In this document: positions 8,909 through 13,818 of the stretch, piece after piece | Layout: every line of letters starts with the position of its first letter | How positions within the stretch are numbered: position 1 is the first letter of the stretch | Notes under the pieces: generated by a model | What the model was told of the DNA's origin: nothing | Database searches by the model: none | Seen by the model: the letters and a program-made list of their open reading frames with translations, nothing else | Translations under genes and position numbers: made by a program | Virus record (IMG/VR): IMGVR_UViG_2565956611_000003 | Coordinates: 1 to 15,035 of that record | Reading direction: 5' to 3' (one strand) | Origin: a virus | Taxonomy: Duplodnaviria > Heunggongvirae > Uroviricota > Caudoviricetes | DNA length: 15,035 bases

Positions 8909-9136
8909 CTTCACCTGTTCACCTTTTGATATTTTCCATTTAAATTCATACTGTTAAGGGGTGAACAGTTTCACAAAAACTATTCACCAACTGTTCACCA
9001 CTGTTCACCCTTGAAGCTCAATAAACAACCAAAAAGGTGAACAGTGAATAGTTTGGTGAACAGTTCATAAATAACTGTTCACCCTATAATATACTGATAT
9101 AAAAGATAATTATGACAGGCTGAACAGTGGTGAACA
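8909..9136. repeat. Iteron array / candidate origin of replication (P4-type TGTTCACC octamers plus AT-rich segment)
   Basis: Eight perfect octamers: TGTTCACC at 8916, 8992, 9002, 9076 and the reverse complement GGTGAACA at 8960, 9036, 9055, 9129. Degenerate copies near 8909, 8981, 9044, 9119. AT-rich stretch with TATAAT at 9085-9118. Lies directly 3' of the primase/helicase gene. Confidence 0.8.
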
Positions 9137-9150
9137 GTTATTCAATAAGT

Positions 9151-10968
9151 TTAATTTTTGCTATCGTCATTAGTGACCGATACACATGATGGCATCCAGT
9201 CTTCTGATTCCTCCGTCAGTGTCACGTTTGAACGAAAACCGTGCTTCGTTTTCCGTTTCATATACTCCCTGCCATATTCCGCCATTGCCCCCGGCATATC
9301 TTTACCGAAGCGCGTCAGTGTTACAGGTTTACCAAACCCATGTGCCCTCATATAAGCCAGATAGGCATGATAGAGATACCTGCGTGGGCTGAATGGCACA
9401 ATTTCAGCATTACCCACTAACAGGCCATCACACATTACCGACGCCATGAGATAGCCGCAGAAGTCCACCAGCGAATCCCCCTCTCGCTTTATCGCCAGTG
9501 CTTCTTCAGATTTCTGCTGCTCATATAACAGGCGTCTGGCTTCGTCCTGGTCAGCAAACCGTGTAAGCAGATGGCGAATCACTACCGCCAGCTCACCTTC
9601 TATTTTTTCCGCCAGCATTGGATCGCGTTCGTTCTCCGGTACAACTTCCGAAAAATTGAATATCACCCGACGACGTGAGATCCCCCCGCTGCGGTCACTG
9701 AATGACATGGCGTTATTGTTAACCGCCAGCACTACTGCCGGAATACGCGTTGAGTAGGGGGCTTTGTGTTTCGGGTCAATTGCCACCTTGTCACCGCCTG
9801 TAATAGCCTTAATCCCTGCCCCATCACCAGCGTAGCGGGTCATATCCGGCATGATAATCAGCGAAAAGCCAACCACTAACGCGCGTTCCCTTGCATCTTC
9901 CAGCGCCTTCATGCTTGCCGATACTGTGTTGGCCTTACCCGCCAGCATGGTGCAAATCTCCGCCATCACGCTTTTACCACTTCCCCCTGGACCTGTTACC
10001 TCAATGAATAACTGCCAGTCGTACCGGTTCGCCAGCACCATGAATAATGCAGCCAGTACGCGATCCGCCTTGCGGTCATTCTCAGCCACCGAACGGCGTA
10101 ACCACTTCCAGAAATTCGGCGCATGTGTTGCCAGCGTTTCCCCCTCTGCTGGTGGGCTGAAAGGTAATTCACTGGCAATTAACAACCAGTCGTTTTTGTT
10201 ATGCTCCCGAAAATTACCTGTTCTGGTATCAAATACCCCGTTACTGAATCCAATCAGGTTACGGGCTGTATTCCCCATTACAGGCAAACTTAACTTCATG
10301 GTATCGACCGCCGATTTAATGGCGTTCTGCGAATAGCTGATCTCCGCATCAATGAAAATCTGTGCCATAGCTCGCTGTAATTCTTTATCCTGTACTGGCT
10401 CCCATACAACGCCGTTGTAATGGTGAACAGTGTCAGAGTCAGCATGAATCGCCAGTTCACCGCCATAATGTGCCAGGAGAACTTCGCCGCGTTGACTTGC
10501 TCCCATCTGGTTAAGCGCCAGTGATGAAGCGTTATCGTCTTTTACCCGCTCTTTTTTCTTTACAGGCAGTTCAACTACCTTTTTCTTTTCCGCCTGCTCT
10601 GCCCGTTCACGTTCCAGATATTCGCGCCAGTTCTCCCGTTTCTGGCTGTGCATTCCTTCAGGGTAATAATCAGCATCCCTGACACCTGCCACTGCCAGTT
10701 TCTGCCCGATGGTATTAACAAGCCCCGGACGCAATAACCCCGCCTGATAGAGACGCACGCGATAGCGTCCGTCCGATACGATTTGCAGGTTGTCCAGTTC
10801 GGCAAGTTGTTGCTCTCCAAGCCAGACAGGTGGCACGTTATCGCCAGCCAGTCGCCCGTCCTGTTCCTGCCACTGTTTCGCATGTGCCCACGCATCACTA
10901 CCCGCAAAAATGATGACTTCCGTCATTTTGTCACGCGGCTGGTGTTTTAAATTTGGCGCTTTTTTCAT
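9151..10968 (-). CDS. Replication initiator, primase/helicase type (P4 alpha-like / D5-like SF3 helicase with Walker A)
   Basis: About 605 aa from ATG 10968 (SD GGAGAGAG upstream; ATGA overlap with the preceding ORF). Walker A motif TGPGGSGKS mid-protein; large multi-domain protein next to the iterons. The ORF-track start at 10983 is GTG. Confidence 0.8.
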   Translation of the reverse strand: MKKAPNLKHQPRDKMTEVIIFAGSDAWAHAKQWQEQDGRLAGDNVPPVWLGEQQLAELDNLQIVSDGRYRVRLYQAGLLRPGLVNTIGQKLAVAGVRDADYYPEGMHSQKRENWREYLERERAEQAEKKKVVELPVKKKERVKDDNASSLALNQMGASQRGEVLLAHYGGELAIHADSDTVHHYNGVVWEPVQDKELQRAMAQIFIDAEISYSQNAIKSAVDTMKLSLPVMGNTARNLIGFSNGVFDTRTGNFREHNKNDWLLIASELPFSPPAEGETLATHAPNFWKWLRRSVAENDRKADRVLAALFMVLANRYDWQLFIEVTGPGGSGKSVMAEICTMLAGKANTVSASMKALEDARERALVVGFSLIIMPDMTRYAGDGAGIKAITGGDKVAIDPKHKAPYSTRIPAVVLAVNNNAMSFSDRSGGISRRRVIFNFSEVVPENERDPMLAEKIEGELAVVIRHLLTRFADQDEARRLLYEQQKSEEALAIKREGDSLVDFCGYLMASVMCDGLLVGNAEIVPFSPRRYLYHAYLAYMRAHGFGKPVTLTRFGKDMPGAMAEYGREYMKRKTKHGFRSNVTLTEESEDWMPSCVSVTNDDSKN

Positions 10969-11264
10969 TTCTGCTCTCTCCACGCGGCAATCATGTTTTT
11001 TAGTTCCTGTAGTTTTTTATCAACATCCATACATGACACATGGTTATTTCTGGAAAGCGGGATTTCCCGACTGAATCTGCTAATAAAGATCTCCACGTTC
11101 AGCGAACTAAGAAATGAATAGCCATCACGGATAAAATACACACGGTCAAACATCAGTTCTTTTACCGTTACTCTGTTACCGTTCTTATCCAGATAAATAG
11201 CGCCGGGGATAATTTGGGGGTGTGCATAACCGCTGGCAGTCAAGCCAGATAAATACGTTCTCAT
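10965..11264 (-). CDS. Hypothetical protein (99 aa)
   Basis: ATG at 11264; stop overlaps the primase start (ATGA). Moderately AT-rich. No family recognised. Confidence 0.5.
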   Translation of the reverse strand: MRTYLSGLTASGYAHPQIIPGAIYLDKNGNRVTVKELMFDRVYFIRDGYSFLSSLNVEIFISRFSREIPLSRNNHVSCMDVDKKLQELKNMIAAWREQK

Positions 11265-11270
11265 GATTAT

Positions 11271-11591
11271 TTATCCCCGATTTGAATCAGTATTCGCTTT
11301 CTTTATAGCATTTAATGCATCTGTGGCATTTTCAATGGTGCACCGTAACGAAATATCAAAATGTCCAAGCATTGCCAGTAACAAACCGATATTACCCATA
11401 TCAATGCGCATGGCCTTTTCGTCATAGTCCTCATTTTCTGACGCATGCCACATCAGGCTACCAATTGACGCAACAGCCATTGATATATTGTCAGTAGCCC
11501 CATCCGCAGCGGAATAAACCTTTTTAGCAATATCATGCTCACAGTTAAAATGCGGATTAATCAGGTACTGGTAATTTGACATATCAGGCAT
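11271..11591 (-). CDS. Hypothetical protein (106 aa)
   Basis: ATG at 11591 preceded by a G7 run acting as SD; 6-nt gap to the next ORF. No family recognised. Confidence 0.5.
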   Translation of the reverse strand: MPDMSNYQYLINPHFNCEHDIAKKVYSAADGATDNISMAVASIGSLMWHASENEDYDEKAMRIDMGNIGLLLAMLGHFDISLRCTIENATDALNAIKKANTDSNRG

Positions 11592-11787
11592 GGCACCCCC
11601 CCTGACGAATACGGGCGGCGAATACCATCACGCAGCCAGCCGGGGATTGCTGGCGTGCTTCCTGTTCGCTGCTGGCCTCAATGGTAATCACGCGCGGTTG
11701 TGCCGTGCTCAGGGCGATAAAACGCCAGATGTATTTATTCAGGTTGTACGAGTCCCGCCCTTGCGGGTGTATGGTATGATTTCTCAT
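11584..11787 (-). CDS. Hypothetical small protein (67 aa from the internal ATG; ORF-track version starts at a TTG at 11877)
   Basis: ATG at 11787 with GAGG SD. First gene after the leftward promoter. The 3' end contains the G7 tract and overlaps the next gene by 8 nt; it may be the N-terminal part of a frameshifted longer gene. Confidence 0.4.
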   Translation of the reverse strand: MRNHTIHPQGRDSYNLNKYIWRFIALSTAQPRVITIEASSEQEARQQSPAGCVMVFAARIRQGGCHA

Positions 11788-11885
11788 AGCTGCCTCGATA
11801 CTCTCGTTATCGTTGGTGGTTAGACGCCCCGTATGTGTTTCCGGCACTGCGGGGCGTTGCTCTTTGTATTTCAACAATCCTTTCG

Positions 11886-11963
11886 GTGTGTTTCATGTTA
11901 TGAGCGCATGAAACACACGTCAAGGCTTTTTGTATTTCTTTTTTTGTGTATACTGAAACACAC
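11886..11963. promoter_or_regulatory. Divergent promoter/operator region with three TGAAACACAC sites
   Basis: Perfect 12-bp inverted repeat GTGTGTTTCATG (11886-11897) / CATGAAACACAC (11907-11918) overlaps a leftward TTGACG-17-TAACAT promoter (-35 at 11923-11918, -10 at 11900-11895, minus strand). A third TGAAACACAC (11954-11963) overlaps a rightward TATACT -10 (11949-11954) upstream of the 11985 gene. Confidence 0.5.
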
Positions 11964-11984
11964 CGATGATTAGGAGTTTCAGAA

Positions 11985-12290
11985 ATGGCAACGGCTAACA
12001 AAAACGCAAAATCACAACTGACAACTGTCAGAGTCCCACTAGATGTTATGCAAGGGATGGAATCCGTTAAGCTGGACGGCGAAAGCAATGCCGGATTTAT
12101 CGTAACCGCCATGCGCGGAGAAATAGCCCGCCGCCAAGCAGAAGGCAGCGGAGAAAATCCCCTTGTGTCGTCACTGGATGCCCTGGCTAAGGTCGAACAA
12201 ATCGGCATCAAAGCAGCGGAAGAAATCGGGCAGCTTGTCACCGTTGCACGCGAAGAACTCCAGCGTCGCAAGACCAAAGAACCAGAGTAA
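11985..12290 (+). CDS. Putative small DNA-binding regulator (101 aa; possible ribbon-helix-helix type)
   Basis: ATG 11985 with AGGAG 8 nt upstream; typical enterobacterial codon usage. N-terminal QLTTVRVPLDVMQGM resembles a beta-strand-then-helix RHH start; this is a weak inference. Convergent with alpA. Confidence 0.55.
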   Translation: MATANKNAKSQLTTVRVPLDVMQGMESVKLDGESNAGFIVTAMRGEIARRQAEGSGENPLVSSLDALAKVEQIGIKAAEEIGQLVTVAREELQRRKTKEPE

Positions 12291-12332
12291 TCACCATCAG
12301 CGCCGTGGTGTAAGGTATTACGGCGCATTGCT

Positions 12333-12521
12333 ATGCAGGACAACACAATGACCGATAAAGAATTGACCAAAACATTATCACCGGCACGGAAAAGACGGCG
12401 CAGAAAGATAGAGCATGAATCAGAAAGATTCGCGCCATGTGCTTTTGCTCTTGAGAAATTCCTTAAAGAGCACAGGAAAAAGCTCTCGTTGCAAACCTTG
12501 GAACGAACCAAATCTGACTGA
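12333..12521 (+). CDS. Hypothetical basic small protein (62 aa), doubtful
   Basis: Follows the 101-aa gene and precedes the 12590 terminator; contains an RKRRRRK stretch. Weak SD and several rare codons (AGA, AGG, CGG, ATA). Confidence 0.3.
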   Translation: MQDNTMTDKELTKTLSPARKRRRRKIEHESERFAPCAFALEKFLKEHRKKLSLQTLERTKSD

Positions 12522-12589
12522 TCACATTGCCCACCAGCCGCAAATGTGGCATTGTTGGTGATGCGTTCAAGTTTAGTGTGTATCCATTG

Positions 12590-12618
12590 GCGACCGCCCC
12601 CGGTCGTCTTTGTTTTAT
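12590..12618 (+). terminator. Rho-independent terminator for the plus-strand operon
   Basis: Stem CGACCG (12591-12596), loop CCCC, CGGTCG (12601-12606), followed by TCTTTGTTTT. No U-run on the opposite strand. Confidence 0.6.
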
Positions 12619-12635
12619 ATGTCATATGCTCCCCT

Positions 12636-12860
12636 TTACGCTGCCTTACCTGAATTAACGCGGTCACGGCTTTGCACCCAGTCCATAACTTCGGAAAGCA
12701 ACCAGCCTACAGAACGCCCCCCAAGATTACGGCGAGACGGAAAGCCCCCTTTCTTCTCCAGTTCGTAGCGTGTAGTACGGCTGACGCCTGTTAACTTACG
12801 ACATTCATCCTCACGAATTACGCGATCTGTTAGTGATTGAAATTGTGTATTTTGATTCAT
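12636..12860 (-). CDS. alpA: AlpA-family prophage transcriptional regulator (small HTH excisionase-like activator)
   Basis: 74 aa (MNQNTQFQSLTDRVIREDECRKLTGVSRTTRYELEKKGGFPSRRNLGGRSVGWLLSEVMDWVQ...) matches the AlpA/CP4-57 regulator pattern. ATG at 12860 with GAGGG SD. Position near the integrase is typical. Confidence 0.85.
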   Translation of the reverse strand: MNQNTQFQSLTDRVIREDECRKLTGVSRTTRYELEKKGGFPSRRNLGGRSVGWLLSEVMDWVQSRDRVNSGKAA

Positions 12861-12963: not shown

Positions 12964-13818
12964 TTAATTTTCATTAGATAACATTTTTCTTATTTTTTCT
13001 AAAGAATCGCTGCGCATTATTTTTTCTAAGAAGGGTTTTACAGTCTGAGCAATAGCAAAGGTGTCCTTTTCACCATCAGGATACAAAGATACGGCAAGCA
13101 CCCCTAATGAAATTTTTCTATCTGTAGACAACTCCCAAGATAATAAGTCAATTAATGGGATTATCTTATAATCAATAATTTTACGTCGTATGCTCTCCCA
13201 ACTTCCTGCAATTGGTTTGTCTGGCTCAACAATTGAAAGTTCACTACGCCATTTTGGTAATAGTTTTGTAAACGCTTCAATCAACTCATCATCTCTGTTA
13301 TGTAGTAAGTCAACAGAAACAAGCATATTATCTAATGTATCAGAAAGGAGATTCACTGGTTCACGCATCACAGCCCAAAACATCCCATTATCTTCTGATA
13401 TTAAACTTCCAACCATCTCATTATCTATGATGATTGGTTTATCCTTCCAATATCCTCTTTCCGCAGTCAGTTTATTAATCATTGATATATCAAACCTTGT
13501 TACAGGTTTAATTCCATCATCATAACTTAGCTCAATTAACTTCGGTTGCACTTTATGGTCATATTCTTTTTGTTTATCACAAAACCAATCGTCTTCTTTC
13601 AGCTCTCCAAATGGATCCCCGTAATTATTATGCAACGGGTATTCAGCACCAAACATAAATCCATATTCAGGCATCTCAGAATGTTTCATCGTTAAATCAT
13701 CTTGTCGCCAATATAATTGGCGAAATAGATCTTTATCCGACAAGTTTTCTAGGCAATCATATTTGCCTAAATCAAATGACTTTGGTAAATCTTTTTTACT
13801 ATTTACTTTTTTCGTCAT
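12964..13818 (-). CDS. Hypothetical protein (284 aa), AT-rich cargo gene between integrase and alpA
   Basis: ATG at 13818 overlaps the integrase stop (ATGA) with GAGGG SD. Markedly AT-rich compared with int and alpA. Acidic, soluble-looking protein; no family or catalytic motif recognised. Confidence 0.7.
   Translation of the reverse strand: MTKKVNSKKDLPKSFDLGKYDCLENLSDKDLFRQLYWRQDDLTMKHSEMPEYGFMFGAEYPLHNNYGDPFGELKEDDWFCDKQKEYDHKVQPKLIELSYDDGIKPVTRFDISMINKLTAERGYWKDKPIIIDNEMVGSLISEDNGMFWAVMREPVNLLSDTLDNMLVSVDLLHNRDDELIEAFTKLLPKWRSELSIVEPDKPIAGSWESIRRKIIDYKIIPLIDLLSWELSTDRKISLGVLAVSLYPDGEKDTFAIAQTVKPFLEKIMRSDSLEKIRKMLSNEN

Follow-up and report, generated by a model that had tools for sequence, protein, structure and literature searches.

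Background

The immI region of phage P22 contains the genes for the ribbon-helix-helix (RHH) repressors Mnt and Arc, the divergent promoters Pant and Pmnt, and the sar antisense RNA; Mnt also carries a C-terminal oligomerisation helix. Other RHH autoregulators (omega, CopG, ParG, and antitoxins) act at operators composed of repeated sub-sites, whereas the Stl proteins are helix-turn-helix proteins that are unrelated to RHH. Here we describe an array of repeated sites in a 15,035-nt stretch of DNA, IMG/VR record IMGVR_UViG_2565956611_000003 ("the window"), which represents a satellite-like island of E. coli. The array, at 11865-11966, lies between a leftward replication operon and the divergent gene for a 101-aa protein of the YlcI/YnfO family, referred to below as YlcI. 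It is probably the operator of this protein, a putative RHH protein with a conserved C-terminal helical domain. Judging from the sequence comparisons described below, YlcI probably binds the sites and represses the promoter of the replication operon.

For the phage-inducible chromosomal islands (PICIs) of Gram-negative bacteria, AlpA-dependent induction is established, AlpA is the sole regulator reported, and the existence of a repressor has been called unclear (PMC6092414). The contrast with the repressor-based PICIs of Gram-positive bacteria has been termed a mystery (PMC6092414). The paper on capsid-forming PICIs (cf-PICIs) also describes induction via AlpA only. The zone in question has been described as holding Bro-type proteins and immunity RNAs (PMC10111431), and a survey of E. 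cloacae lists "YlcI/YnfO, Icd" in cf-PICIs with no comment. In the literature, no paper was found that gives the YlcI/YnfO family a function. The switch considered here is of a classical kind; what is new is the context, in which such a switch is undescribed.

Repeated sites over back-to-back promoters

Three exact copies of TGAAACACAC are present upstream of ylcI, at 11886-11895 on the minus strand and at 11909-11918 and 11954-11963 on the plus strand. The first two belong to a perfect 12-bp inverted repeat, GTGTGTTTCATG (11886-11897) and CATGAAACACAC (11907-11918), whose arms are separated by 9 nt. In addition, 11883-11895 and 11954-11966 are complementary at 13 of 13 positions. An earlier reading of the same DNA, made without database searches (the sequence-only reading), had reported the exact copies and the inverted repeat at these positions and had described them as a three-site operator. 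The three copies are indeed there, but the count is too low: an unbiased search for the best-repeated 8-mer returns five phased copies, at positions -120, -98, -75, -54, and -30 relative to the ylcI start codon. These TGTRTTTC sites extend across 11865-11962 with spacings of 22, 23, 21, and 24 bp.

The five sites are designated S0 to S4. S0 (11865-11872, plus strand), a TGTATTTC variant, lies in the first-transcribed part of the leftward operon's leader and is included in a 14-nt direct repeat (11859-11872 and 11925-11938, spacing 66 bp). S1 (11887-11894, plus strand; arm 11886-11897) is a perfect copy within the left arm, GTGTGTTTCATG, and lies over the -10 element and start region of the leftward promoter (PL). 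S2 (11910-11917, minus strand; arm 11907-11918) is a perfect copy within the right arm, which reads CATGAAACACAC on the plus strand, and falls in the PL spacer. S3 (11931-11938, plus strand), again a TGTATTTC variant, is at about -27 of the rightward promoter (PR). Finally, S4 (11955-11962, minus strand; 11954-11966) contains the third exact copy, TGAAACACACCGA on the plus strand, and lies over the PR start region.

Could the repeats simply have arisen by chance, without function, in an AT-rich intergenic region? When the 10-mer is counted with at most one mismatch, there are 4 copies where 1.39 are expected, and at least 4 also appear in 11 of 200 shuffles, so this count alone is not significant. 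However, the TGTRTTTC core occurs 7 times in the 15 kb against 1.23 expected, a number reached by none of 200 shuffles, and six of the seven copies fall within 11834-11962. Furthermore, the sites are kept across genera while the spacers drift, and class-specific arrays are present at the same positions in related loci (see below). Chance is thus hardly a credible explanation.

The sixth exact copy of the core (TGTGTTTC, 11834-11841) stands apart from the array. It is located in the loop of a leader hairpin, out of phase and 31 bp from S0, and is found only in the sub-group of sequences to which the window belongs.

PL was found by a consensus scan as a near-consensus promoter, TTGACG-17-TAACAT (11923..11895, minus strand; hexamer score 9/12, spacer 17 bp), with its -35 element at 11918-11923 and its -10 element at 11895-11900. 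As the sequence-only reading had it, the inverted repeat overlaps the -10 element and the spacer: the S1 arm overlaps the -10 element, and the S2 arm fills the spacer and touches the -35 element. In class 1, the class of the window, the plus-strand sequence GTCAAG at the -35 element is near-invariant, and most relatives have a TAnnnT-like hexamer at the place of the -10 element despite a varying spacer between S1 and S2. A box related to the PL -35 element is present in all classes.

The sequence-only reading had also placed the third half-site over the -10 element of a rightward promoter. A -10 element for PR, TATACT (11949-11954, plus strand), can be read by eye; it abuts the third copy, and its TAnnnT pattern is kept in all classes. 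The consensus scan called no rightward promoter, because no -35 match is present. Extrapolating from the -10 positions, transcription would start near 11888 for PL and near 11961 for PR, and S0 would lie at about +20 in the PL leader. Relative to these predicted starts, each promoter has site centres near -2.5, -26, and -47, the geometry of repression. A hairpin formed in RNA by the S1/S2 inverted repeat was considered and rejected, because the predicted PL start falls inside S1.

Mnt of P22 represses Pant and stimulates Pmnt. YlcI might likewise be a two-way switch that represses PL and activates its own PR from S2 and S3, or it might be mainly an organiser of a nucleoprotein structure. PR is without a -35 element, S3 is at the place where one would be, and S2 is near -47 of PR. 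Nevertheless, the perfect S4 covers the -10 element and start region of PR, a position that is typical of repression, and such a role for YlcI seems unlikely.

An additional inverted repeat, CTGAAAC...GTTTCAG (11953-11959 and 11975-11981), brackets the ribosome-binding site of ylcI. In Xenorhabdus and Photorhabdus it reads ATGAAAC...GTTTCAT, changed on both sides. Its 5' arm is upstream of the predicted PR start; it may form an RNA hairpin or be an extra weak site.

Variation of the sites with the N-terminus of YlcI

A set of 174 loci was compared, for which loci were fetched from other genera (13), metagenomes (80), and viral contigs (80) by way of an alignment of 24 relatives. Based on the N-terminal strand (YlcI residues 12-17), the proteins fall into about 12 classes: LTTVRV (72 loci), MTTIRV (39), SLTARI (30), QISIRI (10), MKNIRF (9), QLNARF (4), IKNVRV (3), and five further classes with a single locus each. 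The layout is kept in every locus, with a divergent gene, a leftward -35 element of the TTGAC type, and a TAnnnT -10 element that immediately precedes the last site. In contrast, the repeats are class-specific in sequence, and in most classes they occupy about the same five positions; several other classes also have their own site at about -120 from the ATG, the position of S0. Thus, sites vary by class while positions and promoters stay fixed, which supports the suggestion of the sequence-only reading that a switch on back-to-back promoters controls the replication module.

The sites of four classes share an outer TG and TCA and differ between them: TG-TGTT-TCA for LTTVRV (TGTGTTTCA), TG-TGAT-TCA for QISIRI (TGTGATTCA), TG-GTAT-TCA for QLNARF (TGGTATTCA), and TG-GGAT-TCA for QINARF. 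The SLTARI site is TG-TAAG-nCA (core TGTAAG), the MTTIRV site is TGTATATC(TC)AC, and those of IKNVRV and LKNIRI are GTGTGCAT and GTGTGTATTT, respectively. When each locus is assigned its best-matching core, core and protein class agree in 72/72, 36/36, 30/30, 10/10, and 9/9 loci of the five classes with at least 9 loci, and the concordance is complete in each class with at least 3 loci. A de novo 8-mer test within each class gives shuffle fractions from 0.003 to 0.39; it is significant in some classes only and missed the 6-7 bp core of SLTARI. The argument is therefore built on the positions and on the comparison across classes.

Class 1 is represented by 23 distinct sequences, with Escherichia, Xenorhabdus, Photorhabdus, and Serratia as the genera of origin; conservation among them is 0.91-1.00 for sites and promoter hexamers and about 0.7 for the intervening spacers. 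The majority fraction is 0.99 for S1, 0.97 for S2, and 1.00 for S4; the value of 0.70 for S3 reflects a 1-nt shift in the alignment, since TGTATTTC is found in 23/23 sequences.

The protein varies in a correspondingly local way. In the E. coli classes MTTIRV, SLTARI, and QISIRI, identity with the YlcI of the window is 90-97% over residues 21-50 and 90-94% over residues 51-98, but falls to 40-68% over residues 1-20. In an RHH protein, this region comprises the N-terminal arm and the strand that reads the DNA.

The linkage of the two also appears when the search starts from the DNA. Among 2.9 million viral contigs, GTGTGTTTCA-N(10-16)-TGAAACACAC occurs in 46, and in 45 of the 45 that could be evaluated an LTTVRV-class ylcI starts exactly 66 nt downstream. 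This bears on the idea that a helper-phage or host factor, rather than YlcI, binds the sites, an idea that has in its favor the dependence of Gram-negative PICI induction on helper-phage factors (PMC6092414). In these contigs, the inverted repeat is never present without a matching ylcI, and in classes with at least 3 loci the type of site corresponds without exception to YlcI residues 1-20. A host factor is made less likely by the coexistence of at least 7 site types in E. coli-like loci that share one architecture, and a tblastn search of 50,697 phage records with full-length YlcI gave no match. An outside factor as the binder is thus quite unlikely.

Natural mosaics

Natural mosaics separate YlcI from its neighbours. 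Locus L171 is ~100% identical to the window outside 11805-12445 (from 11085 to ~11805, and from 12445 onward), and its primase, AlpA, DUF6387 protein, and integrase have 100% protein identity with those of the window. Yet it carries an SLTARI protein together with TGTAAG sites, the most divergent block being 11845-12045. Similarly, in locus L081 the product of orf62, the gene that follows ylcI, is 100% identical and the Icd-like protein 91% identical, but the operator is of the MKNIRF type (divergent block 11885-12125). More generally, when AlpA, Orf62, Icd-like protein, primase, and integrase are clustered at 90% identity, their clusters each contain up to 4-5 operator classes, and the adjusted Rand index between cluster and operator class is 0.20-0.29 for these five proteins.

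Because the same proteins occur with different operators in these mosaics, AlpA, integrase, primase, Icd-like protein, and Orf62 were all rejected as determinants of specificity. Among the binders that the sequence-only reading had put forward, the 101-aa protein is singled out by the class covariation; AlpA and the 67-aa Icd-like protein are excluded.

The mosaics also bear on whether the repeats are sites for AlpA or integrase, or iterons for the primase or another initiator. AlpA is the known activator of Gram-negative PICIs (PMC6092414), and phased repeats of ~22 bp do look iteron-like. However, the AlpA, integrase, and primase of L171 are all 100% identical to those of the window while the site sequence is different, the clusters of each of the three hold several operator classes, and the island has a separate field of GGTGAACAGT iterons at 8912-9142. 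The iteron and excisionase-site readings are therefore removed by the mosaics, and the operator repeats do not behave as iterons of a replication origin, given that an identical primase occurs with different sites in L171. Taken together, a role of this kind is highly improbable.

YlcI as a putative ribbon-helix-helix protein

The ylcI-like gene (11985-12290, plus strand) encodes a 101-aa protein, the proposed RHH repressor, that matches the YlcI/YnfO model NF041551 over residues 9-50 with 63.2 bits (cut-off 30). The RefSeq product name is likewise YlcI/YnfO, and the PHROGs entry is of unknown function. In the AF2 (AlphaFold2) model an extended segment is followed by two helices (residues 19-28 and 35-54), and the modelled N-terminus superposes on solved RHH domains (beta-alpha-alpha). 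The best structural matches are RHH antitoxins; the matches include TacA, ParD/PrpA, and MazE. Two features define the RHH motif: the helices are joined by a G-x-S/T/N turn, and the junction from strand to helix reads R-h-P-x-D/E. In YlcI, G32-E33-S34 fits the turn, with E33 invariant, and R16 and P18, invariant in 24 relatives, fit the junction.

No curated RHH sequence model reaches its threshold with YlcI. The best match, to PSK_trans_fac (E 0.0011; 16 bits, cut-off 28), is sub-threshold and recurs as such in 18 of the 24 members; Pfam gives sub-threshold matches only, and a profile search of PDB sequences returns no RHH chain. Because of this, it is the modelled structure that argues for membership of YlcI in the RHH (MetJ/Arc/CopG) superfamily. 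An hhalign comparison with P22 Mnt places LTTVRVPLDVMQGM on HFNFRMPMEVREKL of Mnt and aligns the strand register RxP-x-E/D, at a probability of 0.9%, i.e., without statistical support. A weak match of helix-hairpin-helix type between residues 45-86 and Hef (1x2i, E 0.004) was not relied on.

The C-terminal half of YlcI (residues 45-101, 12117-12287) is common to the specificity classes and contains an invariant I73-G74 in a long predicted helix. The namesake YlcI of E. coli K-12 (L176:3752-3946; 64 aa, DUF3950) adjoins cos/nohD in DLP12, a lambdoid cryptic prophage, and no comparable site array was seen by eye upstream of it. Because of the different context and the lack of an array, the K-12 protein gives no support by analogy.

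The structural matches to antitoxins, together with the small basic open reading frame (ORF) that follows ylcI in one apparent unit with a terminator, could suggest that ylcI and orf62 form an addiction pair of the toxin-antitoxin type, with autoregulatory repeats that have nothing to do with replication control. However, most MTTIRV loci and most loci of other genera gave no match to Orf62, orf62 is exchanged freely relative to the YlcI class, and Orf62 has no match to any toxin family. In addition, two perfect sites straddle the divergent PL, which a toxin-antitoxin operator would not need. An addiction pair is thus very unlikely. The analysis suggests a function for the uncharacterised YlcI/YnfO family.

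Proposed mechanism

In the mechanism that we propose, dimers of YlcI, probably joined through the C-terminal helical domain, would occupy five sites about two helical turns apart; oligomerisation through this domain is inferred. Occupation of S1 and S2, both perfect, would cover the -10 element, start region, and spacer of PL and so shut off the replication operon encoding the Icd-like protein, a DUF4222 protein, and primase. S3, a weaker variant, and S4 would cover the spacer and start region of PR; because they do so, YlcI would limit its own synthesis, although more weakly. That the regulation is repression is read from the positions of the sites. Leader, operator, and the first ~20 codons of ylcI would together form a swappable cassette of the immunity type, with at least 12 specificity types, in which the N-terminal arm and beta-strand of YlcI (residues 1-20) would set specificity.

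Several observations weigh against this mechanism. The site spacing of 21-24 bp is wider than in classical RHH operators, the orientation of the sites varies between classes, and PR has no recognisable -35 element. The LTTVRV and MTTIRV strands differ by conservative changes only (L12M, V15I), yet their operators differ; thus, either specificity must also depend on the N-terminal arm or recognition is modelled incompletely. Finally, the operator is adjacent to the N-terminal codons of ylcI, and so some co-inheritance is expected by linkage alone. For this reason the argument relies on the fact that four to five copies change together in each class, and on the elimination of the other genes.

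A wider reading can be offered tentatively: many Gram-negative PICIs and cf-PICIs may have in the ylcI cassette the master repressor that they seemed to lack, equivalent to Stl/Rpr. The swappable cassette would then consist of an RHH repressor, its five-site operator, and an antisense RNA resembling sar; it would split satellites into at least 12 hetero-immune groups and lock the replication operon independently of AlpA. A helper-phage inducer would act on the conserved C-terminal domain of YlcI, or convergent transcription driven by AlpA would bypass this domain. Shorter, Arc-like versions, such as the 57-aa ORF of the O157:H7 island described below, would fill the same slot elsewhere.

A candidate antisense RNA

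A candidate unit for a cis-antisense RNA (11772-11872, plus strand) also lies over the icd-like leader, with an extended -10-like box, TGGTATGAT, at 11772-11780, a predicted start near 11787, a terminator hairpin at 11823-11858, and a T-rich tail. By its sequence, the candidate RNA can base-pair with the start codon and ribosome-binding site of icd-like and with almost the entire PL leader. The hairpin and the T-rich tail, which is present on the plus strand only, are conserved in all classes. Across 32 diverse loci, 350 of 350 cells of the hairpin stem pair on the plus strand (40 of them as G-U) versus 310 of 350 on the minus strand. A TAnnnT box antisense to the first icd-like codons is present in 66/66 distinct sequences and in the same position wherever checked; its extended TGnTAnnnT form, which is TGGTATGAT in the window, is found in 32/66 and is kept even where the encoded N-terminus differs. 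The conserved box and the conserved hairpin with its T-rich tail therefore predict a plus-strand RNA of 80-85 nt, whose computed fold has -37.1 kcal/mol (z = -4.65). Rfam gave no C4 or isrK match and nothing else relevant, whether the whole window was searched at the gathering threshold or 11500-12700 at E up to 5.

A PICI-like island of O157:H7 (L175) has no annotated ylcI. The slot contains an unannotated Arc-like ORF of 57 aa (L175:4825-4998, plus strand) with the N-terminus MSTPLEKRSPPYQMRLPEDF..., which matches Arc (E 0.038) and YlcI_YnfO_N (E 0.0014), both below threshold. Two copies of the palindrome AATGGTAATTACCATGT lie upstream of it (L175:4782-4828). RefSeq gives a partial Icd-like pseudogene on the opposite strand at this slot.

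The island and its neighbouring genes

The window has 100% identity with E. coli SMS-3-5 (NC_010498.1), in which RefSeq annotation places the ~15-kb island between thiM and rcnR. The gene order begins with the integrase, a DUF6387 protein, and an AlpA-type regulator, which are followed on the opposite strand by the YlcI/YnfO-family protein and a small hypothetical protein. Next, in the leftward part, come the Icd-like protein, a hypothetical protein, a DUF4222 protein, primase, and SSB; the remaining genes encode major capsid, protease, portal, connector, HNH, TerS, and TerL proteins. Pfam and NCBIfam models agree with this annotation for AlpA, the D5-type primase, SSB, NF041551, and the Icd-like model. 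The island is ~15 kb long, has int, alpA, and primase genes and a capsid, protease, portal, connector, TerS, and TerL set of its own, and lacks tail genes; from this gene set, which is that of a cf-PICI, the window is assigned as a cf-PICI-like satellite of E. coli SMS-3-5. Of 5,426 complete E. coli genomes, 654 contain the conserved C-terminal half of ylcI (12085-12290).

The leftward operon proposed to be under PL (9151-11787, minus strand) comprises icd-like (11587-11787), a gene for a hypothetical protein of 106 aa, the DUF4222 gene, and the D5-type primase gene (9151-10983). Downstream of the primase gene, a 265-bp gap holds a dense field (8912-9142) in which GGTGAACAGT / ACTGTTCACC recurs at least 9 times, with both orientations represented. 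This field, whose iteron sequence is unrelated to the operator sites, probably represents the iterons of the satellite's replication origin.

On the other side, orf62 (12348-12521, plus strand), which encodes a small basic protein (57 aa in the RefSeq annotation), is apparently co-transcribed with ylcI. Between the two genes is a perfect 7-bp GC-rich stem, GCGCCGT...ACGGCGC (12300-12326), with no T-run on either strand; a near-identical stem-loop, with one loop base different, is present in the O157:H7 island (L175:5009-5035). A terminator-like hairpin with a T-run (12589-12618, plus strand) would end the ylcI-orf62 unit. It is separated by 18 nt from the 3' end of alpA (12636-12860, minus strand), which is convergent on this unit. 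The minus strand of the hairpin is without a T-run, so that the element is one-directional; leftward alpA transcripts could consequently read antisense through orf62 and ylcI towards PL, although such transcription is speculation.

The gene for the DUF6387 protein (284 aa; 12964-13818, minus strand) sits between those for integrase and AlpA, the usual place of accessory genes, and is absent from most related loci. PADLOC gave no match for the DUF6387 protein, YlcI, Orf62, or two hypothetical proteins.

Significance and comparison with known systems

The locus offers a concrete repressor candidate, with a defined operator, in satellites that have been reported with AlpA only. Its natural specificity variants are ready-made controls, since the cassette is essentially all that distinguishes L171 from the window. 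As the O157:H7 island illustrates, current annotation can miss the regulator altogether. If confirmed, the cassette would be relevant to the design of delivery vehicles based on PICIs and to predictions of satellite coexistence.

Each of the described systems resembles the locus in part. Compared with the RHH autoregulators (omega of pSM19035, CopG, ParG, TacA, ParD, and CopA), the sub-sites here are ~9-11 bp long and ~22 bp apart rather than contiguous, and YlcI has a conserved 50-residue C-terminal domain and no obligatory partner toxin. The immunity regions of P4 and P1 and the PICI "Bro zone" (PMC10111431) have the same location, between alpA/vis and the replication operon. As in the immI region of P1, the first gene is Icd-like, and as in P4 and P1 there is an RNA element, here a candidate, in the leader. 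However, P4 and P1 use the CI/c4 RNA upstream of kil or icd-ant, whereas a protein repressor is proposed here, and the candidate RNA, without an Rfam C4 or isrK counterpart, would not be processed from the leader but lie antisense to it.

In the Stl/Rpr master-repressor systems of SaPIs and Gram-positive PICIs, as here, the regulator gene of a phage satellite is divergent from the replication operon and the integrase gene is on the regulator's side (layout in PMC6092414). Unlike in those islands, alpA lies between ylcI and int and is convergent on ylcI.

P22 immI offers the fullest set of parallels. Like Mnt, YlcI would be a small repressor of the RHH type to which a helical C-terminal domain is added. 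The operator in each case overlaps back-to-back promoters, one of which drives a short regulatory unit and the other a potentially harmful operon, and the candidate antisense RNA, like sar, would cover a ribosome-binding site in the repressed operon. On the other hand, YlcI has no significant sequence similarity to Mnt, five sites at ~22 bp take the place of the single operator of P22, the operon starts with an Icd-like gene and encodes a satellite primase rather than an antirepressor, and the element is a satellite, not a phage. By analogy, then, the design appears closest to P22 immI, and the layout closest to the divergent Stl/Rpr arrangement of Gram-positive PICIs.

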